Below, piece by piece: positions 4,252 to 24,873 of a DNA stretch of 64,000 bases. The notes beneath the pieces are model-generated. The model did no database searches and was not told the DNA's origin. It worked only from the letters and a program-made list of their open reading frames with translations. Every line of letters starts with the position of its first letter. The first letter of the stretch is position 1. The stretch is from an uncultured Pirellulaceae bacterium (GTDB taxonomy: Bacteria; Planctomycetota; Planctomycetia; Pirellulales; Pirellulaceae), in contig CAZWSX010000003.1 of NCBI GenBank assembly GCA_964636985.1, forward strand, positions 361,627 through 425,626, given 5' to 3'. The translations under genes were made by a program, and so were the position numbers.

Positions 4252-5739
4252 ATGAGCACGACACCCTTTGGCACAAGCGGCTCGGCCGCCGCTGGCGTTG
4301 AGTTTCCTTGTTCGGGCTGCAGCCGAATGTTGAAAGTCCCCGCCACCGCGGTGGGCAAACAGGCCAAGTGCCCCCAATGCGGCGTGGTCCAAACCATCCC
4401 CGGTCAGTCCAGTGTCGCGCAAACCATTCCCGGGCTGGCGACGATGCAAGGCCCCGCCCCGCAGACGCCTCCCTCGTTCGGCCATGCGCCCAACTTTGGC
4501 CAGCCTGCTGCTCCTCAGTCGAACTTCGTCCCTCAGTCCAACTATGGTTCGCAGCCAGGTTACGGATCGCAGCCGGGCTTTGGGCAGCAACCTGCTTACG
4601 GTCAACAATCGGCTCATCCCCCGGCGCCGCCGCGGCCGATCCCGCAAATGTCCTTTCAGCCGCCAGCCGCCGCACCACCGGCACCTGGTCCCATGCACCT
4701 GACTCCGGCACCCGCCCAACAGCCACAGCCGTCCGCGGCGCCGATGGGGCACGGGCAAAGTGGTTTCGCCGCCACGCCGGCCCGCGAAACACCAACGAAA
4801 CTTTTGTTCGACAAGATCGCCAGCGAGATCGCCAAGATCTATGTCGGGCAAGACGAACTCGTTCTCGGCTCACTGGTGGCTTTGTTTTCCAACGGCCACG
4901 TCTTGATCGAAAGCGTCCCAGGGTTAGGCAAGACTCTCTTCGTCCGCACGCTCGGCCGCGTGCTCGGTTTGCCCTTCGGCCGCATCCAGTTCACGGCCGA
5001 CTTGATGCCCAGCGATATCACGGGCGCACCGATCTTCGATATGAAGACGCAGGAGTTCCGCTTCCGGCCGGGCCCCGTTTTCACGCAGCTTCTGCTGGCG
5101 GACGAAATCAATCGCTCGCCGGCCAAAACCCACGCGGCTCTTTTGGAAACCATGCAGGAATACCGCGTCACCATCGACGGCAAGAGCCATCCGCTGGAAC
5201 GCCCGTTCTTGGTCTTGGCAACGCAAAACCCCATCGAGTCGGAAGGGACCTACAACCTTCCTGAAGCGCAGCTCGACCGTTTCATGTTCAAGCTCGTCGC
5301 CAACTACCCCAAGGAAAACGAGGAACAAGACATCCTCAAAATGCACAGCCGTCAGGAGGACGTCAATTTGCAGCTGAACGACAAGCTCGAGCAGGTCACC
5401 AACTGCCAAGAGATCCAAAAGATCATCCAGGAAAATGCCCAGGTCCATATCGACGACCGGCTAGTCGACTACATCACCAAGATCGTCCGGCTCACGCGCC
5501 AGTGGCGCGAACTCCACATGGGGGCGTCGCCTCGTGCCGGGATCGCGCTCATGCAGGCCGCCCGCACGCTGGCCGCCTTTAGCGGCCGCGACTATGCCGT
5601 GCCCGACGACGTGGTCCAACTTTCGCTTCCGATTCTGCGCCATCGCGTGGTGCTCACTGCGGAGGCCGAAGTGGAAGGAAAGAAAGTCGACGACGTCCTG
5701 GTTGAAATGATCCGTTCCGTGGAGGTCCCACGCTTTTGA
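4252..5739 (+). CDS. MoxR-family AAA+ ATPase with N-terminal CxxC...CxxC zinc ribbon and a P/Q/G/Y-rich low-complexity linker
   Basis: The N-terminus has CSGCSRMLKV...CPQCG. A ~170-aa linker follows with repeats such as SQPGYGSQPGFGQQPAYGQQ. The ATPase core has Walker A (VPGLGKT), Walker B (LLADEIN) and an LVLATQNP sensor region. Confidence 0.85.
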   Translation: MSTTPFGTSGSAAAGVEFPCSGCSRMLKVPATAVGKQAKCPQCGVVQTIPGQSSVAQTIPGLATMQGPAPQTPPSFGHAPNFGQPAAPQSNFVPQSNYGSQPGYGSQPGFGQQPAYGQQSAHPPAPPRPIPQMSFQPPAAAPPAPGPMHLTPAPAQQPQPSAAPMGHGQSGFAATPARETPTKLLFDKIASEIAKIYVGQDELVLGSLVALFSNGHVLIESVPGLGKTLFVRTLGRVLGLPFGRIQFTADLMPSDITGAPIFDMKTQEFRFRPGPVFTQLLLADEINRSPAKTHAALLETMQEYRVTIDGKSHPLERPFLVLATQNPIESEGTYNLPEAQLDRFMFKLVANYPKENEEQDILKMHSRQEDVNLQLNDKLEQVTNCQEIQKIIQENAQVHIDDRLVDYITKIVRLTRQWRELHMGASPRAGIALMQAARTLAAFSGRDYAVPDDVVQLSLPILRHRVVLTAEAEVEGKKVDDVLVEMIRSVEVPRF

Positions 5740-11688: not shown

Positions 11689-11902
11689 GCTCGGTAGCAA
11701 AGTTTTCGCAAAAAACCACCGCGGCCGCAACGAATCGTCAAGCTGCCGCTATCTAAGACCTGCGCTCGGTATAAAGTAGCTGAGACGAGGTGAGCGAACC
11801 CGTTCACCAGGCTTTCCGACGCTGAGAACCGCGACGCAACTGGGCACGTACCAGCCAAAGTGCTTTCGCACCCTTTGGCTTTTCGCCCAGTGGACCCTCG
11901 AC

Positions 11903-14900
11903 ATGACTTCTTATCGCCTCAAACTAGCCCTGATGCTGCTCGTTTCGGGAGCATGCGGGCTCGTCTTTCAAACCACTTGGCTGCGTGAATTCCGCCTGAT
12001 CTTTGGTGGATCGACCCCCGCCACAGCCGCCGTGCTCGCCGTTTTTATGGGCGGGCTGGGAATTGGCAACGCTCTCTTCGGCAGCTTCGCCGAACGATCT
12101 AAAAACCCGCTTCGGCTCTACGGCTTGCTCGAAGGTGGAATTGCCCTCAGCGCCATGCTCAGCCCATTTGCTCTCAAGCTGGCGATGTCGATCTACACGC
12201 AACTAGGCGGACAGTCGGCCCTGGGGCCTCTCGGCGCCACGCTGGTGCGGCTTGGGCTCGCCACCGTGGTGATGGGCATTCCCACCATCCTGATGGGTGG
12301 AACTTTGCCCGCCGTCGCAAAAGCGGTCACCACTCATTCCGATGTCCAACGCCGATGGCTGGCCGCCTTCTACGGACTGAACACACTCGGCGCCGTCCTG
12401 GGCACTCTGTTGGCAACCTTTGTGCTGCTGGAAAGCCTCGGCCACACGGCAACGCTATTCGCTGCATGCGCTGCCAACTTGCTTTTGGCCGTGACCGCGT
12501 GGTTCATCTCGTCGAAGCCCGCGCCCGTCGAAGCCCTGCCAAAGAAAACCAAGCGCGAGCGAAAAAAAGAACACGACGTCAACCACATCGACGCGGAACG
12601 GCCCGCAAAGCCGACGGAAGAACTCGCGTTGCCGATGTGGAGCATCTATCTGACGGCCGCCCTTTGTGGATGCATCTTCTTCCTGATGGAGTTGATCTGG
12701 GACCGCATGTTGACGCCGCTCCTGGGCGGATCGACGTTCACCTTCGCCGTGATTCTGGCGACGGTCCTGTTGGGTATAGGGATCGGCGGTTTGCTTTACC
12801 CGGTGATCGCTCGAAGGTTTGGCGTTACCCCCGCGCTCTTGGCAATCATGTGCGCGGCACAGGCGCTGACGATTGCGATTCCCTTAGCCTTAGGTGATCA
12901 AGTGGCTGTCTTCACAGCTTGGGTCCGCTCTCACCACGTCTCGAATTTCGCCACCCTCGTCCGCAGCTGGTTCATGATCACGACGATTGTTGTCTTCCCC
13001 ACATCGTTGATCGCGGGCATGCAGTTCCCCATTCTCGCCGCTTTGCTCGGCCGCGGCGATACCAATGTCAGTCGGCAGTACGGTTGGCTCGTCTTCTGGA
13101 ACACGTGCGGCTCGATCCTCGGTGCGCTGGCCGGAGGCTTCGGGCTGATTCCATTGCTCACCGCCACGGGCGCGTGGCGTATCTCGGCAGCCGTACTGGC
13201 CGTGCTGGCCATCGTGTGGGCGATCGTCGCGATTTGCGCCACCACCAAGCGAATCGGCGCCGCGGCGGCATTTGCCATTACTGCTGTTGCCGTGGTCTGT
13301 CTCTTCGCCATGGGTCCCACACCCTTCTGGCGGCACAGCGGCATCGGGGCGGGACGCGTCCGGCTCGCCAAATGGGGAGCGAACGACGTCAAGAATACAC
13401 TCCTGCAATATCGTTCCACGACCATCTGGGAGGCGGATGGCGTCGAGTCGTCCGTAGCCATCCAATTGACCGATGGCCTCTCGCTCTTGGTAAACGGCAA
13501 GTCGGACGGCAGCGCCATCACCGATCGCGATACGCAAATCATGCTCGGCCTCCTGGCGCCGCTTCTCCGCGAAAAACTCAGCGACGCCCTCGTCGTCGGA
13601 CTCGGAACAGGCGAAACGGCCGGTTGGCTCGCCGAGTGTCCCGATACCAAGCGCGTCGACGTTATCGAACTCGAGCCCGCTGTCGGCGAAATGGGCCGCC
13701 GCTGCGGCGAGCTCAACTTCAACGTCATGAACCACCCCAAAGTCAATCTGATCTACAACGACGCGCGAGAAGTACTTCTTACCACGCCCAATCAATACGA
13801 CCTGGTCGTCTCCGAGCCCTCCAATCCCTACCGGGCAGGCGTGGCCAGCCTCTTCACCGACGAGTACTACGCCGCCGCGAAGAAGCGCCTTCGGCCGCGC
13901 GGTGTCTTTGTGCAATGGCTCCAAGGCTACGAAGTCGATGTGCTCACCGTGCAAACCGTCTTCGCAACGCTGCTGCGGCAGTTCAAACACGTTGAGGTGT
14001 GGAGCGGGATCGCCAACGATTTGATCCTGGTCTGCCGCGACGATGACGAGCCTTACGACTGGGAAAACATCGGCTCGCGGCTGGGCCAACATCCCTTTCA
14101 GCAAGGAGTGCGGGCGGCATGGAACATGTACGACATCGAGGGCGTCGCCGCGCACTACGTGGCCGGAGTCAAAACGGTGCGCGGCCAGGCCGAGATCGCC
14201 GGCTTCTTCAACAGCGACGATCAAAACTCTTTGGAATACGCATTCGCTCGCTCCGTGGCCTCCTGGCAAGGTCAATCGACCGTCCAGGACGCAACGCTCT
14301 TTAGCATGATCGACCTGCGGAAAAAGGCGCTGCAAGACTCCGACGGCGAGCCACCAGCAAAGGACCTTGCCCCCGATCCCGAACGGACACGCGAACGTCG
14401 TATCTCAATGCTCGCTCGGCATCATGAGTCGCTGTTTGTCGAGGGCGAAGATTCAGCCAGGGAAGCTCGCCGCCTGTCGCTTCAACAGGCCGGAGAACGC
14501 GAAATCGAGAAGTCGCTGTACATTTGGGGCACGCAGACCGACGATCCTCACGACGCCATCCAATGCTGCTTGATGGCGCCGATCTTTGGTTTGAAAGACC
14601 CACCCAGGATGAAAGCCACCATCGATCGCCTGGCGAAATGGTCGCCCAACGACACCGCCGTGTTGGAACCGTACTACTACTATGTGATTCAAGACTTCGC
14701 CACTTGCGATAACAAGGTTTTTGAGGCGTTCGATCGATTGCGCTCGGACCCGTGGATCGACCACCACGTCGTGTTTTTCTTTTTCCGAGCGGTTGTTGCG
14801 CGAGGCCACGACGACAAGGAATTCCGGCGAAAGGCCTACGAGGCGCTGAAACAACCGTTTCCTGGATTCGCGGCCGACTTGGAACGCCGTTCCACCCTGA

Positions 14901-16528: not shown

Positions 16529-16621
16529 AATGGTGCATGCGAAGGTTGGTCGAGCGAAGTATAACGGTAGGTATTCTGAGTAAACGATTTTGTACGCTAG
16601 AACACCCAGGAGTTTTCGTCC

Positions 16622-18670: not shown

Positions 18671-19627
18671 CTAGTTTTCTCCCCCGTCGCGCAAGTGTCG
18701 CCCGGTCAGCGAAATGAAGACGTCTTCCAGCGTCGCATGCCGCGTGGTCAACGTAGCGAACGATCGGCCACTGCTCTGCAAATGATTCATCAACGCCGGC
18801 AACGCAATATGCGGCTCGTCGACCGAAAGGCTGTAGGCGCCGTCCTCGTGCCGGACCGCCCGCACCGACGGCAAGTTCTGAAACTCGGCATCCGTCGCCT
18901 TCATTCCGTTTTCTTCAAGCGAGAAGTCAACAATGTGTTGCCCGCCCAAGTTCGCAATCAATTCCGCAGGCGTTCCCAGCGCGATAATGTTTCCATGATC
19001 CACCACGGCGACGCGGTCGCACAATCGCTCGGCCTCGTCCATGTAGTGCGTGGTGACGAACACGGTTTTGCCCGCATCGCGAAACGACCGGATGATCTCC
19101 CACAACTGCCGCCGCGATTGCGGATCGAGCCCCGTCGTCGGCTCGTCCAGAAAAAGAATGTCAGGCGACCCAACAATCGCACAAGCGACAGCCAAGCGCT
19201 GCTTTTGTCCGCCCGAGAGTTTCTCGACATAAGCGCCGGTTTTCTCTTGCAGCGAAACCTTCGCGATGGCTTCCTCTGCCGAAACGCCGCTTGCATAAAA
19301 CGATCGAAAAAGATGGACCGTTTCGCCGACGGTCAGCTTATCGGCCAAGCGCGTCTCCTGCAGCGAGATGCCAATCCGTTCGCGAATCGCTTGATCGTCG
19401 TGCCCCCACCGCAGGCCCAGCACTTCGATTTCGCCCGAGGTCGGCGCCAGCAGCCCCTCGATCATTTCCATGGTGGTCGTTTTGCCAGCACCGTTGGGCC
19501 CCAGCAAACCAAAGCACTCGCCACTGGCCACCTCCAAATCGATGCTGCGAACGGCCTCGACAGGCGGCTTGGCCGCATACGTTTTGACTAACTGCCGGCA
19601 CCGAATCGCCATCTTGGGAGGGTTCAT
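18671..19627 (-). CDS. ABC transporter ATP-binding protein (start 19627 or 19612 is more likely than the ORF-track start at 19831)
   Basis: Walker A GPNGAGKTT, ABC signature LSGGQKQRL, Walker B ILFLDEPT. ATG at 19627 (MNPPK) or 19612 (MAIRC). Confidence 0.85.
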   Translation of the reverse strand: MNPPKMAIRCRQLVKTYAAKPPVEAVRSIDLEVASGECFGLLGPNGAGKTTTMEMIEGLLAPTSGEIEVLGLRWGHDDQAIRERIGISLQETRLADKLTVGETVHLFRSFYASGVSAEEAIAKVSLQEKTGAYVEKLSGGQKQRLAVACAIVGSPDILFLDEPTTGLDPQSRRQLWEIIRSFRDAGKTVFVTTHYMDEAERLCDRVAVVDHGNIIALGTPAELIANLGGQHIVDFSLEENGMKATDAEFQNLPSVRAVRHEDGAYSLSVDEPHIALPALMNHLQSSGRSFATLTTRHATLEDVFISLTGRHLRDGGEN

Positions 19628-19877
19628 GCGTGAAATGATACTCGGCGGCGCCGGTACCGGCCACAAAGGGTAGGGAAGATCACGAAGCGTTGAAGGCCGG
19701 TCGACTGTGTAGCAATTCAAAGGCGGTCGAAGCGACACGATGAGAAAAGAAGAGGTTCGCGCTGATTTCTGATTAATCTGGTTCTCGCGCCAACCGCACA
19801 ATCTGGTGCCAATAGGAACCCGATTCTTCACAAGCGGCTCACCCTAGTTCCTTCTATACTCTGCGAACGTACGCCTC

Positions 19878-20735
19878 TCACTGAAAGCAATTTGATGTGT
19901 CAAACGAAATCTTAAATGGCTTACCTTCTCTTTCTCTTCTCACGATATCCATCAATTCGAAGAATCGCTCGCAACCATTTACGGGAACTGGCATAAACGC
20001 GCCCAGATGACTTACGGTTTCCCTTTTCACGGTGACAACAACAAGAAAAAACTCAACGTCGTTGACTTTGCCCGGTACAACGAAGTGCGGTTCGTCGATC
20101 GGGAGATCGTTGCTTTCCAAGCCAATGATCAGAGATTTGAGGTCCGGATGTGCCATAGTTGGGTCCTGAATCCGCCGTCTAATCGCTTGAACAATTTCGG
20201 CCGCTGCATATTCGTATCCATAGCACTTAAACAAAGCGAGATAAGCAGCACGCAGGATAGCTGTGTGAAAGACGTTTTTTGAATAGTTTGTGTAAGACAC
20301 GTTGAACCCAGAGACTTCGCCGGCCTTCATCACACGCACAACGTGTTGGAGCGCCTTTGGGTCAGTGGCACGGCCCACAACCCGAAAGTTCTTGGTTTCC
20401 GTTCCGCACGCCAGATCAGCAGCAATCCGTTGACCGTTAACATCGAGCATAGTCCTGAGCGTTCCAAAACCACGAAAGACATCTGACAGTTCCTGAAACC
20501 TGACGAGGTGCGAGTCGAGGGAACTGCCTTGTTCGTTATTGCATCTTGTACACGTCAACACGACTGCCTTGCCGCCCACCGCGCCGGGAACTACGTGGTC
20601 TATCGATAATCCGTCAAAGTGAGTTTGCTGCCAACAAAGTGGGCATATGAGTGCATCATCCGTGGTTGAAAGTTGTGCCGCGCGCTGGCTGGACGCATAG
20701 TGCTCAAACATTCTCCGATTTGTTCTCGCATTCAT
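19878..20735 (-). CDS. HNH-motif nuclease-like protein with ~200-aa C-terminal domain of unknown function
   Basis: CPLCWQQ...SIDHVVPGAVGG...LTCTRCNNEQG fits the CxxC...DH..P...CxxCN HNH signature. Spot counts give ~50% GC here against ~60-65% in the flanks. Confidence 0.55.
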   Translation of the reverse strand: MNARTNRRMFEHYASSQRAAQLSTTDDALICPLCWQQTHFDGLSIDHVVPGAVGGKAVVLTCTRCNNEQGSSLDSHLVRFQELSDVFRGFGTLRTMLDVNGQRIAADLACGTETKNFRVVGRATDPKALQHVVRVMKAGEVSGFNVSYTNYSKNVFHTAILRAAYLALFKCYGYEYAAAEIVQAIRRRIQDPTMAHPDLKSLIIGLESNDLPIDEPHFVVPGKVNDVEFFLVVVTVKRETVSHLGAFMPVPVNGCERFFELMDIVRREREGKPFKISFDTSNCFQ

Positions 20736-20777
20736 GTTCTTTGTCTCGAATAGAAATACCGGCGTAGGACATTCGGC

Positions 20778-21296
20778 TCAAAGTGAAGTCGCGGTCCGGG
20801 CTAACTCGCCAGCATTGAACAGCAATCTTTCAGGTCGCCCAGCGGCCACACAATTTGATTGTTGCAGATCGACCGTCACGTGTTGCGGCGTCAACTCCTG
20901 AGGATCGTTAACTTCGCAGACCGTGCCGATGATTTTATCAGCAGATGCGATGTCTCCTTCCGAACGAATGAGTACCGAGGCAAGCGTCTCCGTAACATCA
21001 TGCCACTTATCGGCGAGAAACTCCGTAGGTGACTGCAAAGCCGCTACGATGCCCTTCCAACTTGGGCTATCGCGGTCGGCAGCTTCGAACACGAATCCTT
21101 CATTTTGTCTGGCGCGCATCCACTCGCCGACGCCCTCCACAGGCAACAACTCCAAGAAGCTCACCGGAACATAGGGGCCGCAAGCCTGATAGAGCCGAAA
21201 GCTCGCGACGTCGACTCCAATGGCCTGGGGAACACGGCCAACGACGTAATGATTTCCATCCGTGTCGCAGATCATGATCAGTTTGAAACGCCACAT
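20778..21296 (-). CDS. hypothetical protein; co-oriented 42 nt upstream of the HNH-motif gene
   Basis: 172-aa ORF in the same lower-GC block with no recognisable motif. Likely co-transcribed with 19878..20735. Confidence 0.4.
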   Translation of the reverse strand: MWRFKLIMICDTDGNHYVVGRVPQAIGVDVASFRLYQACGPYVPVSFLELLPVEGVGEWMRARQNEGFVFEAADRDSPSWKGIVAALQSPTEFLADKWHDVTETLASVLIRSEGDIASADKIIGTVCEVNDPQELTPQHVTVDLQQSNCVAAGRPERLLFNAGELARTATSL

Positions 21297-21647
21297 GTTT
21301 GTTCTGCCTTGTCAATTTCCAATCGACCTCGATCATTCACGTCGGAATTCTAGAGACCGAGCGACAGGGATAAGCCGACTTTGACAGAACTTTGATACGG
21401 CCGCGTTTTGTTTTTGCGCAACCCATGCGCCAGCGGCCTGCAGAACATCCAAGAGCCCGTGCCATTGCCCCCTTACTAGCCACGCCCAAACAGGGCATTC
21501 CGAGGCTATCGCCAAATCCCCCGGGCGTTTCATGAAAAAATTCCGCCAACTGTTGCGCCGCCATCGGGGTTGCGGTTGACCTTCAGAGCCCTATTCCGAG
21601 GGCCTGGCCGCTAAAGTGCGCCCCTGTTTGATAACGGAGAATTAGCG

Positions 21648-21761
21648 ATGGTGGGATTGGGCAATCCGTTCGCAATAGCGATCGAACTCTTAGGCGTGAC
21701 CGCGATGGCGATCATTGTGATACTGCTTGCGACAGGCCGACGAGAGTTCGACCGCCGCTAA
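21648..21761 (+). CDS. candidate 37-aa hydrophobic small protein (below the ORF-track cutoff)
   Basis: ATG preceded by GGAGAA 8-13 nt upstream. Translation MVGLGNPFAIAIELLGVTAMAIIVILLATGRREFDRR is one TM helix with a basic tail. Stop TAA at 21759-21761. Confidence 0.2.
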   Translation: MVGLGNPFAIAIELLGVTAMAIIVILLATGRREFDRR

Positions 21762-21788
21762 GAATCGCCCCCCCTTCGATGCCGCCAA

Positions 21789-21861
21789 GTATCCCTGTCA
21801 GGAGTCGAACCTGAACTACGACCTTCGCAGGGTCGCGTGCGAATCCTTAACACTTCAGGGA
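21789..21861 (-). tRNA. tRNA-Arg (anticodon GCG)
   Basis: 73-nt cloverleaf on the minus strand. Acceptor GTCCCTG/CAGGGAT, D-stem GTGT/GCAC, AC stem CGACC/GGTCG with loop CTGCGAA, T-arm TCAGG-TTCGACT-CCTGA. No encoded CCA. Confidence 0.65.
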
Positions 21862-21869
21862 CAGAAAAA

Positions 21870-21942
21870 ATCGCCAGTTCAGGAATCGAACCTGATCTTC
21901 CAGCTTCGGAGGCTGACGTGCGTATCCAGCACACCCACCGGC
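21870..21942 (-). tRNA. tRNA-Arg (anticodon CCG)
   Basis: 73 nt. Acceptor CGCCGGT/ACTGGCG, AC loop CTCCGAA, T-arm TCAGG-TTCGATT-CCTGA. A paralog of the preceding gene, with the same D- and T-arms. Confidence 0.7.
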
Positions 21943-22008
21943 GTTTCTTGCGTTCAATGGTTTTTGCCACAGAGGGCTCAAAGGTTGAGAATCGAAGGGG
22001 AGAAGGGG

Positions 22009-22047
22009 TGAGTGGGAGGTAGGGAGCAAAAGATTTTCACTCCCACT
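22009..22047. repeat. inverted repeat within a CT/GA-rich spacer of the tRNA array
   Basis: GAGTGGGAG ... CTCCCACTC, a 9-bp stem with a 21-nt loop, embedded in polypyrimidine tracts (ctccttcaacaccccatctcacattcttctcc). Confidence 0.4.
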
Positions 22048-22115
22048 CTCCTTCAACACCCCATCTCACATTCTTCTCCATGTCCTCCGTGCTCTCTGTG
22101 TTTAAACAAACCGAA

Positions 22116-22186
22116 GCACGAGCGCGAGGAGTCGAACCCCGTCCAACAGTTTTGGAGGCTGTCTGCTCACCCAGGAGCGTCACTCG
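22116..22186 (-). tRNA. tRNA-Trp (anticodon CCA) probable; the 31-39 pair is a C-A mismatch
   Basis: Acceptor ACGAGTG/CGCTCGT, D-arm GCTC-CTGGGTGA-GAGC, AC region GACAGC-CTCCAAA-ACTGTT (the loop matches the classical Trp CUCCAAA), T-arm CGGGG-TTCGACT-CCTCG. Confidence 0.5.
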
Positions 22187-22263
22187 TAAATTTTTACTTC
22201 CCCTCTTCTCCGTTCCCTCCGTGTCTCCGTGGTGAAACTCTCTCCACGCTCTGCGGCAAACAA

Positions 22264-22349
22264 GCGGAAGGCGAGGGAGTCGAACCCACATCGCCGTGAA
22301 GCGAACCACGTTAGCACCGTGGCCCAGCCAACCGTATCTGGCTGCCTTC
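22264..22349 (-). tRNA. tRNA-Ser (anticodon GCT), class II with long variable arm
   Basis: 86 nt. Acceptor GGAAGGC/GCCTTCC, D-stem CCAG/CTGG, AC stem CCACG/CGTGG with loop GTGCTAA, long extra arm, T-loop TTCGACT. Confidence 0.75.
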
Positions 22350-22360
22350 CTCAAGGATCA

Positions 22361-22434
22361 ATAGCCGAAGTGGGAGTCGAACCCACAAGCACCAGACTCT
22401 CGATCTGGCCGCTTTGCCAATTTGCGTACTCGGC
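22361..22434 (-). tRNA. aberrant tRNA: anticodon GAG (Leu) in a short-variable-arm class I body with C33
   Basis: Acceptor AGCCGAG/TTCGGCT, AC stem CCAGA/TCTGG with loop TCGAGAG, T-arm GTGGG-TTCGACT-CCCAC. Only 74 nt, so there is no long variable arm. Confidence 0.45.
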
Positions 22435-22527
22435 TATGTGTGATTTGCCACAGCGAGAATCGCTCCCCATCTCCCATTCTCCCTCTCCCCCATTCTCCTC
22501 CCCCGACTCTTTGGCAAAATCCCGAAC

Positions 22528-22600
22528 ATGACTCGTGCGGGAATCGAACCCGCGTTCTCAGCGTGAGAGGCTGAAGTCCTGTACCGTTAGACGAACGAGC
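22528..22600 (-). tRNA. tRNA-Glu (anticodon CTC)
   Basis: 73 nt. Acceptor GGCTCGT/ACGAGTC, D-arm GTCT-AACGGTACA-GGAC (Glu-like), AC stem TCAGC/GCTGA with loop CTCTCAC, T-arm GCGGG-TTCGATT-CCCGC. Confidence 0.75.
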
Positions 22601-22610
22601 CAAAAGAAGA

Positions 22611-22691
22611 GTGCGCCGGGCAGGAGTTGAACCCGCAATGCCAAAGCGAGTGGTTTACAGCCACCTGGACTTGCCCATGTTCCAACCGACG
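22611..22691 (-). tRNA. tRNA-Tyr (anticodon GTA), class II
   Basis: 81 nt. Acceptor GCGTCGG/CCGGCGC, AC stem GGTGG/CCACT with loop CTGTAAA, extra arm, T-loop TTCAACT. Confidence 0.7.
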
Positions 22692-22724
22692 CATGCTTGC
22701 CTTGAAACACTGTGTTTTGCGATG

Positions 22725-22798
22725 ATGGCCCGAGTGGGATTCGAACCCACAGCATCTTCGGGTTTAAGCCAAAGTGGTCTGCCGGTTGCCTACCGAGC
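22725..22798 (-). tRNA. aberrant tRNA: anticodon TAA (Leu/UUA reader) in a class I body
   Basis: 74 nt. Acceptor GGCTCGG/TCGGGCC, AC stem TTTGG/CCGAA with loop CTTAAAC, T-arm GTGGG-TTCGAAT-CCCAC. The D-arm is poorly paired and there is no long variable arm. Confidence 0.45.
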
Positions 22799-22816
22799 CG
22801 CGGCGAAGCTCACCAA

Positions 22817-22887
22817 ATAGTCTCGGATGGAATCGAACCATCGTTTTCGGCGTGTCATACCGGCGCCCTGCCATTGGACGACGAGAC
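22817..22887 (-). tRNA. tRNA-Val (anticodon GAC)
   Basis: 71 nt. Acceptor AGTCTCG/CGAGACT (perfect), D-arm GTCC-AATGGCA-GGGC, AC loop ATGACAC, T-arm GATGG-TTCGATT-CCATC. Confidence 0.7.
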
Positions 22888-22907
22888 TGCATTCAGACCC
22901 CTTGAAA

Positions 22908-22977
22908 ATTGCAGGCCCCGGATTCGAACCGGGCAGCGCGGCCTTATGAGGGCCGCCCAGGCGCCAGCCAAACCTGC
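22908..22977 (-). tRNA. tRNA-Met or tRNA-Ile(lysidine) (anticodon CAT); short, poorly paired D-arm
   Basis: 70 nt. Acceptor TGCAGGT/GCCTGCA, AC stem CGGCC/GGCCG with loop CTCATAA, T-arm CCCGG-TTCGAAT-CCGGG. Confidence 0.55.
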
Positions 22978-23012
22978 ATAGCGTGTGGTTCGATCAAGGA
23001 TCGAACCCCTAA

Positions 23013-23094
23013 GTCGTCGAGGGGAGAGTCGAACTCCCATGCCTAACGGCGTTCCGTTCTGAGCGGAGTGTGTCTGCCAGTTTCACCACTCGAC
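23013..23094 (-). tRNA. tRNA-Leu (anticodon CAG), class II
   Basis: 82 nt. Acceptor CGTCGAG/CTCGACG (perfect), 3-bp D-stem with an 11-nt loop, AC loop CTCAGAA, extra arm GCC..GGC, T-arm GGGAG-TTCGACT-CTCCC. Confidence 0.7.
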
Positions 23095-23226
23095 GAGTGA
23101 CAAGAGAGGAGGAACGAGACATTGACCCGCTGAAGGTTCGCGCGGCATGCAAGAGAACATTTCGCGAAGCCTCAACCGGTCCAACTTATCGCTGCCCTCT
23201 CTCCCTTGGCGGCGTTGCTAGCGCCA

Positions 23227-23298
23227 GCGACTCATGTGGGATTCGAACCCACCTACTCGGATTGAAAGTCCGATGACCTCACCAGAAGTCAAATGAGC
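23227..23298 (-). tRNA. tRNA-Glu (anticodon TTC)
   Basis: 72 nt. Acceptor GGCTCAT/ATGAGTC, D-arm GACT-TCTGGTGA-GGTC, AC stem TCGGA/TCCGA with loop CTTTCAA, T-arm GTGGG-TTCGAAT-CCCAC. Confidence 0.8.
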
Positions 23299-23339
23299 CA
23301 TGTCTTCTCTACTGTCTACTGCTCTCCTATCTACTGTCT

Positions 23340-23365
23340 ATTTTTGGACGCCAGAGCGTCCAAAA
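23340..23365. terminator. bidirectional intrinsic terminator hairpin downstream of tRNA-Asp
   Basis: TTTTGGACGC-CAGA-GCGTCCAAAA: 10-bp stem flanked by T and A runs. It is preceded by tctactgtct-type direct repeats. Confidence 0.6.
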
Positions 23366-23369
23366 ATCA

Positions 23370-23444
23370 GCGTCCCTGGCGGGATTTGAACCCGCGGTCT
23401 CCACCGTGACAGGGTGGTGAGTACTCCTGGCTACTCTGCAAGGA
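23370..23444 (-). tRNA. tRNA-Asp (anticodon GTC)
   Basis: 75 nt. Acceptor GTCCTTG/CAGGGAC, D-stem GAGT/ACTC, AC stem CCACC/GGTGG with loop CTGTCAC, T-arm GCGGG-TTCAAAT-CCCGC. Confidence 0.8.
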
Positions 23445-23464
23445 CATGTGTCAACAAAACTAAG

Positions 23465-23535
23465 GTGGAGCCATCGGGAGTTGCACCCGAATCTCCGGTT
23501 TGCAAGACCGGCGTCTTCCTGTTGGACGATAGTCC
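23465..23535 (-). tRNA. tRNA-Ala (anticodon TGC), degenerate: G3:U70 present but an A4·C69 mismatch and an atypical T-loop TGCAACT
   Basis: Acceptor GGGACTA/TGGCTCC, AC stem CCGGT/ACCGG with loop CTTGCAA, T-arm TCGGG-TGCAACT-CCCGA. 3' trailer ACCT. Confidence 0.5.
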
Positions 23536-23652
23536 CATGTTTTGAGCAGTGGATCAGGAGATCAGTAGACCGAGTTGAGTAGCCGAAGAGTCATTGCATT
23601 CAACGTCCTCTCTGCTCTTGCTGCTTTCTCTACTGTCTCATCTCAACTCTCT

Positions 23653-23678
23653 ATTTTTGGTCGCAAGAGCGACCAAAA
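23653..23678. terminator. bidirectional intrinsic terminator hairpin downstream of tRNA-Ser(CGA); covarying paralog of the 23340 hairpin
   Basis: TTTTGGTCGC-AAGA-GCGACCAAAA. The A>T change in the stem is compensated on the other arm, and the same tctactgtct prefix is present. Confidence 0.6.
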
Positions 23679-23680
23679 AT

Positions 23681-23768
23681 GCGGGAGCCGTGGGACTCGA
23701 ACCCACAAGCCAGCATTAACCAGCCGCCTGTTTTCGAGACAGGTTCCTCATCCGATCCGGATGACTCC
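23681..23768 (-). tRNA. tRNA-Ser (anticodon CGA), class II
   Basis: 88 nt. Acceptor GGGAGTC/GGCTCCC, AC stem CCTGT/ACAGG with loop CTCGAAA, long extra arm, T-arm GTGGG-TTCGAGT-CCCAC. Confidence 0.75.
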
Positions 23769-23859
23769 CGTGAAAAGCGATTTCGTGCGGCCACACATTG
23801 CGAGGGAAGGCCTGCCCCCAAACCTTCGCCCGCAACACGTTGAACGCACTGCCATCGCA

Positions 23860-23934
23860 GTTGCGAAGACTGGAATTGAACCAGTGACAACCTGATTCAA
23901 AGTCAGGCATCGGTACCAACACCGAATCCTTCGC
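23860..23934 (-). tRNA. tRNA-Gln (anticodon TTG) probable
   Basis: 75 nt. Acceptor TGCGAAG/CTTCGCA (U1-A72, as in bacterial Gln), AC stem CCTGA/TCAGG with loop CTTTGAA, T-arm ACTGG-TTCAATT-CCAGT. Confidence 0.6.
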
Positions 23935-23950
23935 AATAATTACCGACCCA

Positions 23951-24023
23951 GCTGCGAGGGCTGGAATTGAACCAGCGTCACGGCGGTTAACAGCCCCCAG
24001 TCCTTACCAACAAGGAACCTCGC
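23951..24023 (-). tRNA. tRNA-Asn (anticodon GTT) probable; G·G mismatch in AC stem and extra nucleotides between the D- and AC-arms
   Basis: Acceptor TGCGAGG/CCTCGCA, D-stem CCTT/AAGG, AC GGGGG-CTGTTAA-CCGCC (the classical Asn loop), T-arm GCTGG-TTCAATT-CCAGC. Closely related to the neighbouring Gln gene. Confidence 0.5.
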
Positions 24024-24039
24024 AAGAATCTTGTTCTCA

Positions 24040-24110
24040 AAGCGTCTAGCGGGAATTGAACCCACGCCTCCGACTTGGCACGCCAGCGCGCTACCTCTAC
24101 GCCATAGACG
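24040..24110 (-). tRNA. tRNA-Gly (anticodon GCC)
   Basis: 71 nt. Acceptor GCGTCTA/TAGACGC (perfect), D-arm GCGT-AGAGGTA-GCGC, AC stem CTGGC/GTCGG with loop GTGCCAA, T-loop TTCAATT. Confidence 0.65.
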
Positions 24111-24149
24111 CATTTGCTACATCGACCGAATTGTCAAACATCGCTTTCA

Positions 24150-24221
24150 GAGCACCGGGTGGGAGTCGAACCCACGTACCTGCATTACGGGTGCAGAGTC
24201 CTAGCCGCTAAACGACCAGTG
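24150..24221 (-). tRNA. tRNA-Thr (anticodon CGT) with unusual C33
   Basis: 72 nt. Acceptor GCACTGG/CCGGTGC, D-stem GTTT/GGAC, AC stem CTGCA/TGCAG with loop CCCGTAA, T-arm GTGGG-TTCGACT-CCCAC. Confidence 0.55.
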
Positions 24222-24234
24222 CATTTGTTCGGTG

Positions 24235-24270
24235 ACCCGTCGAGCGCAAGCTTTTGACCGCGCTCGACGG
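24235..24270. terminator. strong hairpin between tRNA-Lys and tRNA-Thr (12-bp stem)
   Basis: CCCGTCGAGCGC-aagcttttgacc-GCGCTCGACGGG is a perfect inverted repeat. Confidence 0.45.
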
Positions 24271-24302
24271 GGACTGTATTTCCGTGCCTCAAAATCTTCA
24301 CA

Positions 24303-24375
24303 GTGGGACTCGACGGACTTGAACCGCCACCGACTCGGTTAAAAGCCGAGCATGCTGCCGCTAACACCTGAATCC
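24303..24375 (-). tRNA. tRNA-Lys (anticodon TTT)
   Basis: 73 nt. Acceptor GGGATTC/GAGTCCC, AC stem CTCGG/CCGAG with loop CTTTTAA, T-arm GGCGG-TTCAAGT-CCGTC. Confidence 0.7.
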
Positions 24376-24398
24376 CATTGGTTTCGTTCATGCTGTCA

Positions 24399-24470
24399 GT
24401 GGTCTGGGAGGCGCTCGAATCCTCGTATCCTGTTCTTCAGACAGGCGCTACACCGTCTCAGCTACCAGAC
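24399..24470 (-). tRNA. tRNA-Phe (anticodon GAA) with a non-canonical T-arm (4-bp stem, loop ATTCGAGCG)
   Basis: Acceptor GGTCTGG/CCAGACC (perfect), D-arm TAGCTGAGACGGTGTAGC, AC stem CCTGT/ACAGG with loop CTGAAGA. Confidence 0.6.
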
Positions 24471-24873
24471 CGTTTCGTTTCAAACCTTCCCTCCGCGCAC
24501 GAAAAAAGCCCGACATCCTGCGGACGCCGGGCTTGGCGAGGGAACTCGCTGCCAAGCAGACGTCACGTGATAAGTCGTAGTTCAAACTGTTCGGACCAAC
24601 CCAGCAGGTTGCTTCGCTCGCCTAAAGCGAGCGCGCTATCTAATTGGCTTTGATAGGCCAACTGTTTGCCGGATTGATTACTGGAACGTTTCATGACTTG
24701 GTCTCCCTGCTTTGGCTCAGCGAAAAACTCCGCCAGCACGCGACAGGGGATTTTTTGATTTGGGGAACCACTCGAAAGGGGTTTTTCACCGTCCTACGAC
24801 GGCGTCTTACTAATACGATGCTGCGAACCCAAGATTTGTTCGCGCGCCGGAGAAAAAAAGTTTGGGTGGCACT

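Follow-up and report, generated by a model that had tools for sequence, protein, structure and literature searches.

A solitary, horizontally acquired gene for a predicted HNH nuclease in a Pirellulaceae bacterium

Proteins with the Pfam domain HNH_5 fall into the His-Me finger superfamily, in group 1 and in an unannotated 'group 8'; in that 2017 classification, the group made up of HNH_5 proteins only is listed without a function (Jablonska et al. 2017, PMC5714182). In cyanobacteria, long tRNA arrays that were transferred horizontally have a conserved HNH gene upstream, which has been proposed to spread them (PMC8421152). A gene to be compared with both lies in a 64,000-nucleotide (nt) stretch of DNA from an uncultured Pirellulaceae bacterium (contig CAZWSX010000003.1, positions 361,627 to 425,626), here called the window. 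It encodes an HNH_5-family protein of 285 amino acids (aa), and its neighbours are a small open reading frame (ORF) of 172 codons, a tRNA array, and genes for an ABC-2 transporter.

Comparison with related contigs establishes that a single gene of foreign composition was inserted, that it is accessory and has no partner gene, and that the catalytic site it encodes is intact. Taking structure and general role together, the locus probably holds a single horizontally acquired, stand-alone HNH DNA endonuclease, most likely a restriction-like accessory defence nuclease. This judgement is drawn from sequence, and a selfish nuclease of the homing type is a close rival to the restriction-like role. 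As the evidence stands, the HNH gene is an ordinary accessory nuclease gene.

The insertion is revealed by L004, a 285-kb metagenomic contig that is syntenic with the window and carries a 118-aa relative of the small ORF (P0028). Gene order in L004 is GGDEF-CBS, a 21-gene tRNA array, the 118-aa ORF, ABC_tran, ABC2_membrane, DUF2752, and YjgF-like; the HNH gene is absent, and tblastn finds no remnant of it in the contig. DNA identity between the window and L004 is 75–84% over the flanking protein-coding stretches. The window segment ~19789–20935 corresponds to just ~4–27 bp in L004 (insert edges good to about ±15 bp), and comprises the HNH gene together with ~200 bp upstream and ~90 bp downstream of it. 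The L004-type empty site carries the sequence GACATCGCACTTGTTGAAGTGAGGGAGAATGG. Neither terminal inverted nor direct repeats are present at the insert ends, nor is a target duplication, and the window holds no second copy of the HNH gene. Two metagenome scans for further alleles of the small-ORF site gave no matches.

On the tRNA side, homology to L004 stops at ~20936, precisely at the stop codon of the L004 ORF. From there the small-ORF frame of the window continues for ~52 codons into the insert, terminating 42 nt ahead of the HNH start codon. Compared with L004, the first 118 codons give a ratio of nonsynonymous to synonymous substitution rates (dN/dS) of 0.14, the same value as for the neighbouring DUF2752 gene. 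Because of this ratio, and because it is present in the HNH-less L004, the small ORF is taken as a true resident gene; the 172-aa ORF is chimeric because the insertion displaced the original stop codon of a ~118-aa gene; and the spacing of 42 nt merely reflects where the extended frame, having entered the insert, first meets a stop codon. To judge from these alignments, then, the "172-aa protein" is a resident ~118-aa gene product with an accidental read-through tail, and not an imported partner. It has only two database relatives, both from the same lineage, and tblastn finds no homologue of the ~52-aa tail at any other HNH locus.

These other HNH loci were drawn from named genomes (Thalassoglobus polymorphus, Rosistilla ulvae, and Adhaeretor mobilis) and from metagenomic contigs that encode relatives of the HNH protein, some of them annotated as Planctomycetota, Thermomicrobiaceae, or Bdellovibrionales; a narrower scan of a genome collection yielded five loci only. 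All-against-all blastp of the ORFs within 3.5 kb detected no neighbour family common to the 12 HNH loci compared. No flanking DNA is conserved between HNH loci, and homologues with ~50% identity each occupy a different chromosomal site. Contexts with mobility genes include an IS3 transposase; a Y1 transposase together with PemK; a tRNA-Val/integrase island with a KAP NTPase; and IS66. Further contexts include a type I restriction-modification (R-M) system; a lutABC operon with an orphan antitoxin; PIN or NucS-like genes; and plain housekeeping genes. The gene directly upstream of the HNH gene is co-oriented with it in about 12–13 of 14 loci, usually at a distance of 40–250 nt (the count draws on L002, L003, L006, L007, L009, L016, L018–L021, and the window). 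This suggests, without being statistically compelling, that HNH genes tend to sit at the tails of host transcription units.

An earlier note on this DNA had viewed the two ORFs as one module for defence, toxin-immunity, or homing, in which the small protein would act as partner or immunity factor. Its account of the layout was exact in coordinates and lengths: the ORFs are co-oriented on the minus strand and separated by 42 nt (20736–20777). The 172-aa protein does lack a motif, with no match above threshold in Pfam, PADLOC, NCBIfam, or PHROGs (the single sub-threshold match, to PADLOC, has E=0.035), and both genes are jointly present in three near-identical strains. They are so in these strains only, however: tblastn does not find the 172-aa protein at any other HNH locus save that of L005, a 99.2%-identical strain, so that no conserved pair exists beyond close kin. 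Moreover, two thirds of the small ORF is resident backbone DNA under purifying selection, HNH-free in L004; the spacing is merely that of the first available stop; and a search of the pair against the PADLOC defence library returned no defence-system match. The module is thereby largely refuted, and is highly improbable as an account of the locus. As one possible refutation of the module, the note had named decaying remnants, never found together elsewhere and carrying frameshifts. The first half of this description holds outside the near-identical strains; the second does not, as the HNH gene is intact and of full length.

By its sequence and predicted structure, the 285-aa protein is a canonical zinc-finger HNH (His-Me finger) nuclease joined to a conserved domain that resembles no solved structure. 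It scores 39.9 bits against Pfam HNH_5 (PF14279; cut-off 27.5, E=4e-10) over residues 31–79, and its motif string reads ...ICPLCW...DHVVPGAVGG...CTRCNNEQGSSLDSH... The catalytic His, the structural/metal Asn, and the four zinc Cys are all found within a beta-beta-alpha fold. The 26 closest full-length homologues are 33–52% identical to it and nearly all 283–297 aa long. In these, residues C31, C34, C62, C65, N66, and D74 are invariant and H47 nearly so (D74 and H76 fall just past the HNH core), and the C-terminal part contains the strongly conserved motifs LRAAYL..F..GYEY and IRRRI. Being of full length, with zinc and catalytic residues intact, the enzyme is likely active.

Profile searches place the gene in a large unnamed subfamily of HNH_5. 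An exhaustive search of cluster representatives (50% identity clusters) recovered 3,077 at E<=1e-3, 1,746 at E<=1e-10, and 139 at E<=1e-30. Among the best 150 matches, most align along the greater part of their length (~270–335 aa) and the remainder are shorter partial sequences; all 85 members sampled carry HNH_5 and no other Pfam domain. Existing names for relatives are 'hypothetical protein', 'HNH endonuclease', 'HNH endonuclease 5 domain-containing protein', and an automatic 'McrA'. Searches by tblastn of phage, plasmid, and IMG/VR viral-contig collections detected no relatives. The AlphaFold2 model of the protein (predicted local distance difference test, pLDDT, 88; predicted template modelling score, pTM, 0.86) resembles the HNH domains of Cas9, GVE2, and McrA, and a Foldseek search against the PDB returned nothing at E<=1e-3. 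The conserved C-terminal domain of ~200 aa is accordingly modelled as confidently folded and unlike any solved structure.

Composition marks the gene as foreign. The inserted segment (1147 bp) has a GC content of 0.503, against a mean of 0.588 for the window (sd 0.024 for segments of the same size), and this value is the minimum for its size in the whole 64 kb (0.4% tail). GC content at third codon positions (GC3) is 0.517 in the HNH gene and 0.70–0.76 in flanking genes. The resident part of the small ORF has a GC content of 0.554, just mildly low, so the dip belongs to the HNH segment. The same tendency is seen elsewhere: in 11 of 12 other HNH loci, the gene is lower in GC than its surroundings, with marked contrasts such as 0.485 versus 0.654 and 0.417 versus 0.579. 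The HNH gene is thus horizontally acquired DNA, and it behaves as a solitary, repeatedly transferred accessory gene. Its strongly deviant GC3, without amelioration, indicates that the acquisition was recent and that this is not an old decaying copy.

Much of what the earlier note had said of the HNH protein and its setting is upheld by these results. The clean HNH signature is there (CxxC...DH...CxxCNN, with HNH_5 above its curated threshold), and nothing in Pfam, NCBIfam, PADLOC, or PHROGs matches the other ~200 aa; what PHROGs, like PADLOC, gives for this protein is limited to the generic HNH motif. The lower-GC block is real and non-random, although confined to the HNH segment; and the suggestion of acquired DNA agrees with an insertion relative to the syntenic L004 and with strongly deviant GC and GC3. 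The proposed integration hotspot fares less evenly: the DNA that separates the tRNA array from the ABC operon is indeed variable, but it contains neither an integrase nor an att-like repeat.

Related strains display three allelic states of the locus: empty (L004); intact (the window and L005); and interrupted (L022 and L023). The species is present in samples ERR10900138, SRR31912326, and SRR32392773. L005 is 99.2% identical to the window overall. Their ABC genes differ at ~15 sites per kb, whereas the 2.54 kb from 19230 to 21769 hold three mismatches. This low-diversity tract consists of the insert plus ~550–830 bp on each side, and ends at the edge of the tRNA array. In 20,000 permutations, the longest stretch with at most three mismatches never exceeded 1,988 bp (P<5e-5; Fisher's exact P=9e-10), and L022 shows an equal low-diversity pattern on its side. 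This indicates that the segment was exchanged between strains more recently than its surroundings, that is, by recent recombinational sharing. The tract fits co-conversion during homing, and equally any recent recombinational import or gene-specific sweep.

The interrupted alleles come from different samples. Both L022 and L023 match the window near-perfectly up to 20508 and then continue into unrelated DNA; their junction is identical to the base, as are the next 29 nt. The foreign DNA (L022 2034–2062, L023 1004–1180), AGAGGTGGACCCCGCGCGTGAGACAGTTTACCGG..., includes the 3' end of an ORF on the opposite strand, and both contigs end shortly past the junction, as is typical of repeats. The interruption after codon 76 is most simply read as another element inserted in the HNH gene, probably an insertion sequence that inactivates the nuclease. 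At the population level, the HNH gene is accessory and mobile.

These observations lead to the following picture. A ~1.15-kb segment with the HNH gene inserted at the 3' end of the resident small gene, upstream of the ABC-2 transporter operon, removing the stop codon of the small gene and so creating the chimeric 172-aa ORF. In the encoded protein, the N-terminal, zinc-stabilised beta-beta-alpha-metal site (D46-H47, N66, and D74/H76; C31/C34/C62/C65) would cut DNA, and the C-terminal domain would supply target recognition, dimerisation, or both. The nuclease would act without a methyltransferase or immunity partner, in a type IV-like or otherwise self-sparing form of defence. Its gene is probably transcribed from the upstream host gene, since a promoter scan found no sites of its own above chance and since the upstream neighbour is co-oriented at most loci. 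The non-coding stretch upstream of the small ORF (21297–21430) is strongly conserved with L004, including an identical run of 30 nt, GGCCGTATCAAAGTTCTGTCAAAGTCGGCT. It is probably the promoter or operator of an operon made up of the small ORF and the ABC transporter genes, and would now also drive the HNH gene.

Several points weigh against a restriction-like defence role. Nuclease activity, substrate (DNA or RNA), and sequence or modification specificity are predictions for the whole family; PADLOC models match nothing but the generic HNH motif; contexts resembling defence or mobile islands make up about four of 14 loci only; and the C-terminal domain might serve in sensing or regulation instead of DNA recognition. 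Whether DNA was inserted here or deleted in L004 is judged from a single relative together with composition. Finally, the low-diversity tract suits homing at least as well as defence.

A free-standing homing endonuclease would cut the HNH-less allele where the small ORF and the ABC operon meet, or close by, and recombinational repair would then copy the gene with its flanks into the cut chromosome. By analogy with known systems this is possible, though less probable than the stand-alone accessory nuclease favoured above. HNH is an established family of homing endonucleases, represented by the T4 Mob enzymes (PMC2790892) and by an array-linked HNH gene of Anabaena (PMC8421152). The window has the corresponding features: a solitary gene, in single copy, cleanly inserted without transposon ends, terminal repeats, or target duplication; one site occupied in some relatives and empty in another; a near-identical tract of 2.5 kb across insert and flanks, resembling co-conversion, in strains ~1.5% apart further out; and homologues of ~50% identity at differing chromosomal sites. 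Free-standing homing genes, however, thrive in phages, plasmids, and viruses, and the collections of these contain no relatives of the HNH protein. The target, moreover, would be a small, lineage-specific gene of poor conservation; an equal tract would result from recent homologous recombination of any kind or from a gene-specific sweep; and in sibling strains the HNH gene is interrupted. Such interruption, with the patchy distribution of the gene and the chance-level promoter predictions, might instead point to a functionless passenger or decaying remnant of transfer, neither expressed nor used. This is unlikely: the window ORF has its full length of 285 aa, like most homologues; its conserved residues are all intact; length and motifs are kept over thousands of clusters, which implies selection on the protein; and the deviant, unameliorated GC3 speaks for recent acquisition.

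The nuclease could also be tied to the tRNA array, either as an array spreader of the all8564 or SegB kind or as a cutter of tRNA like Septu PtuB. The HNH gene lies ~1 kb from an array of 19–21 tRNA genes, homing enzymes of the HNH or GIY-YIG type tied to tRNA arrays have been published (PMC8421152), and the array-linked HNH protein of Anabaena likewise matches HNH_5. Yet L004 retains its array while lacking the HNH gene; no tRNA array accompanies any of 13 other HNH loci; similarity to the Anabaena protein is limited to a 51-aa motif; the low-diversity tract halts at the array edge; and a PtuA-like partner ATPase is missing. A link drawn from such analogies is very improbable. The HNH gene and the array are best read as two mobile or variable features in a shared variable region, not as a functional unit. 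For the family that joins HNH_5 to this C-terminal domain, a broader proposal is that its members are chromosomal free-standing homing endonucleases, or else single-gene restriction-like defence enzymes that read DNA sequence or modification; this is put forward tentatively, as an idea that may well prove wrong.

Other identities were considered and rejected. Among known anti-phage systems, the sole PADLOC match is marginal, to a type II restriction-enzyme model (E=0.001), and covers the motif only; NCBIfam has nothing for the 285-aa protein, and its relatives show only sub-threshold matches to the IscB motif. A type II R-M system is contradicted by the lack of an adjoining methyltransferase: none is conserved at the other loci, where only L007 lies beside an R-M system, an unrelated one of type I. 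A transposon or insertion sequence would be expected to show terminal repeats, a second copy in the window, or flanking DNA common to HNH loci, and a phage or plasmid origin would be expected to give matches in the phage, plasmid, or IMG/VR collections; none of these was found. An island targeted to a tRNA gene is not indicated, as the 3' end of tRNA-Arg is not repeated and no integrase lies between the tRNA array and the ABC genes. An intron-encoded HNH gene finds no Rfam match over 19400–21780 at E<=1, save a chance-level one to a long non-coding RNA (19462–19515, E=0.62) outside the insert. Likewise, no attC-like hairpin of an integron cassette is present, and the 116 nt downstream fold like shuffled sequences (z=-0.53).

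Table 1. Features of the HNH locus, in window coordinates.
Feature	Position	Strand	Basis
285-aa ORF, intact gene of the HNH_5 endonuclease family	19878..20735	-	ORF list; Pfam HNH_5
172-aa ORF, chimeric	20778..21296	-	ORF list
Small ORF, resident part (codons 1 to ~120)	20936..21296	-	77% aa identity to the 118-aa ORF of L004, same synteny
Small ORF, read-through tail (codons ~121–172)	20778..20935	-	Lies within inserted DNA
Inserted segment, ~1.15 kb	19789..20935	not applicable	blastn and pairwise alignments with L004
Predicted HNH / beta-beta-alpha-metal catalytic domain with CxxC...CxxC zinc site (residues 31–79)	20499..20645	-	
Family-specific C-terminal domain (residues 86–285)	19881..20480	-	
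Breakpoint in sibling contigs L022/L023, after HNH codon 76	20507..20508		Contig alignments

The surroundings of the locus vary in other ways. The ABC ATPase ORF, called as 386 aa at 18671–19831 on the minus strand, probably reaches too far at its 5' end; its orthologue in L004 is 313 aa long, in agreement with an ATG at 19612 in the window, and with this start the spacer after the HNH stop codon is 265 nt. A segment of ~350 bp (~21431–21782) without counterpart in L004 is a second indel of the variable stretch. It contains a 37-aa ORF on the plus strand (21648–21761), MVGLGNPFAIAIELLGVTAMAIIVILLATGRREFDRR, with a GGAGAA ribosome-binding-like motif ahead, one hydrophobic helix, and a basic tail; the gene is also called in L005 and L022. 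It could encode a small membrane peptide or be a type I toxin-like gene. Further away, L004 has a PARG_cat_microb (poly-ADP-ribose glycohydrolase-like) gene at 11738–12580, between YjgF-like and ceramidase-like genes, that is missing from the window (~16529–16605), another accessory-gene difference nearby.

A distance of 492 nt separates the small-ORF start from the tRNA array, which occupies 21789–24471 on the minus strand. ARAGORN finds 19 genes and Rfam adds two, at 23228–23299 and 23466–23536, for ~21 tRNAs in 2.7 kb. None has an encoded CCA end, and many have low Rfam tRNA scores (35–60 bits). Two 'Leu' tRNAs (anticodons GAG and TAA) are 74–76 nt long and lack a long variable arm; short Leu tRNAs of that kind are found in the Anabaena plasmid array too. 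The L004 array, also of 21 tRNAs, gains Lys-CTT, Glu-TTC, Leu-CAA, and Ile-GAT, and is without Thr-CGT and Val-GAC. By analogy, the window array looks like the horizontally derived 'L-array' (PMC8421152). Within it, a 45-nt repeat (23323–23367 and 23636–23680, 84% identical) forms a hairpin between A and T runs, TTTTTGGACGC-CAGA-GCGTCCAAAAA, directly downstream of tRNA-Asp and tRNA-Ser(CGA) on the minus strand; L004 has related copies behind several of its tRNAs (around 4837–4900, 5110–5175, 5332–5396, and 5549–5616). The repeats are read as terminator-like or processing elements within the array.

Together, these results correct a plausible misreading: two neat, co-oriented ORFs mimic a module, when one of them is a resident gene lengthened by insertion. 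They also draw attention to an HNH subfamily, large and unnamed, whose conserved domain resembles no solved structure and which is patchily distributed and repeatedly foreign in its composition. If the family does consist of homing enzymes or single-gene defence enzymes, this locus shows it at work in a planctomycete-like lineage, where empty, filled, and disrupted alleles occur alongside a tract that resembles co-conversion; such natural alleles suit the study of homing in a bacterial chromosome. If the enzyme is specific for a site or a modification, its C-terminal domain would add a new specificity domain to the repertoire of restriction or homing endonucleases.

Among described systems, Pfam HNH_5 proteins share with the window protein the CxxC...CxxC zinc site and the D/E-H...N catalytic core; the Pfam model spans only ~50 residues, however, and the C-terminal domain is without a Pfam, NCBIfam, or PDB counterpart. 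The Anabaena all8564 type (pCC7120delta locus) similarly pairs an HNH_5 gene with a long atypical tRNA array, of 24 tRNA genes, but the protein has 178 aa with the HNH motif at its C-terminus, the opposite domain order, and its gene lies upstream of the array. In EcoKMcrA, a type IV HNH enzyme, the domain order is also reversed relative to the window protein, with its N-terminal HNH, and the second domain of the latter is dissimilar to the N-terminal domain of McrA and to any solved reader of modified bases. Septu PtuB is the nearest PADLOC model for four of 85 family members (E ~1e-4), whereas the window protein has no PtuB match at E<=1 and no adjacent ATPase of the PtuA type; the adjacent ABC ATPase is an ABC-2 transporter subunit, conserved without the HNH gene. 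T4 MobA–E (PMC2790892) are alike in being solitary HNH genes between host genes, without terminal repeats, at sites that are occupied or empty and with co-conversion-like flanks. The window gene differs from these in being bacterial and chromosomal, in having no phage or plasmid relatives, and in its other accessory domain.

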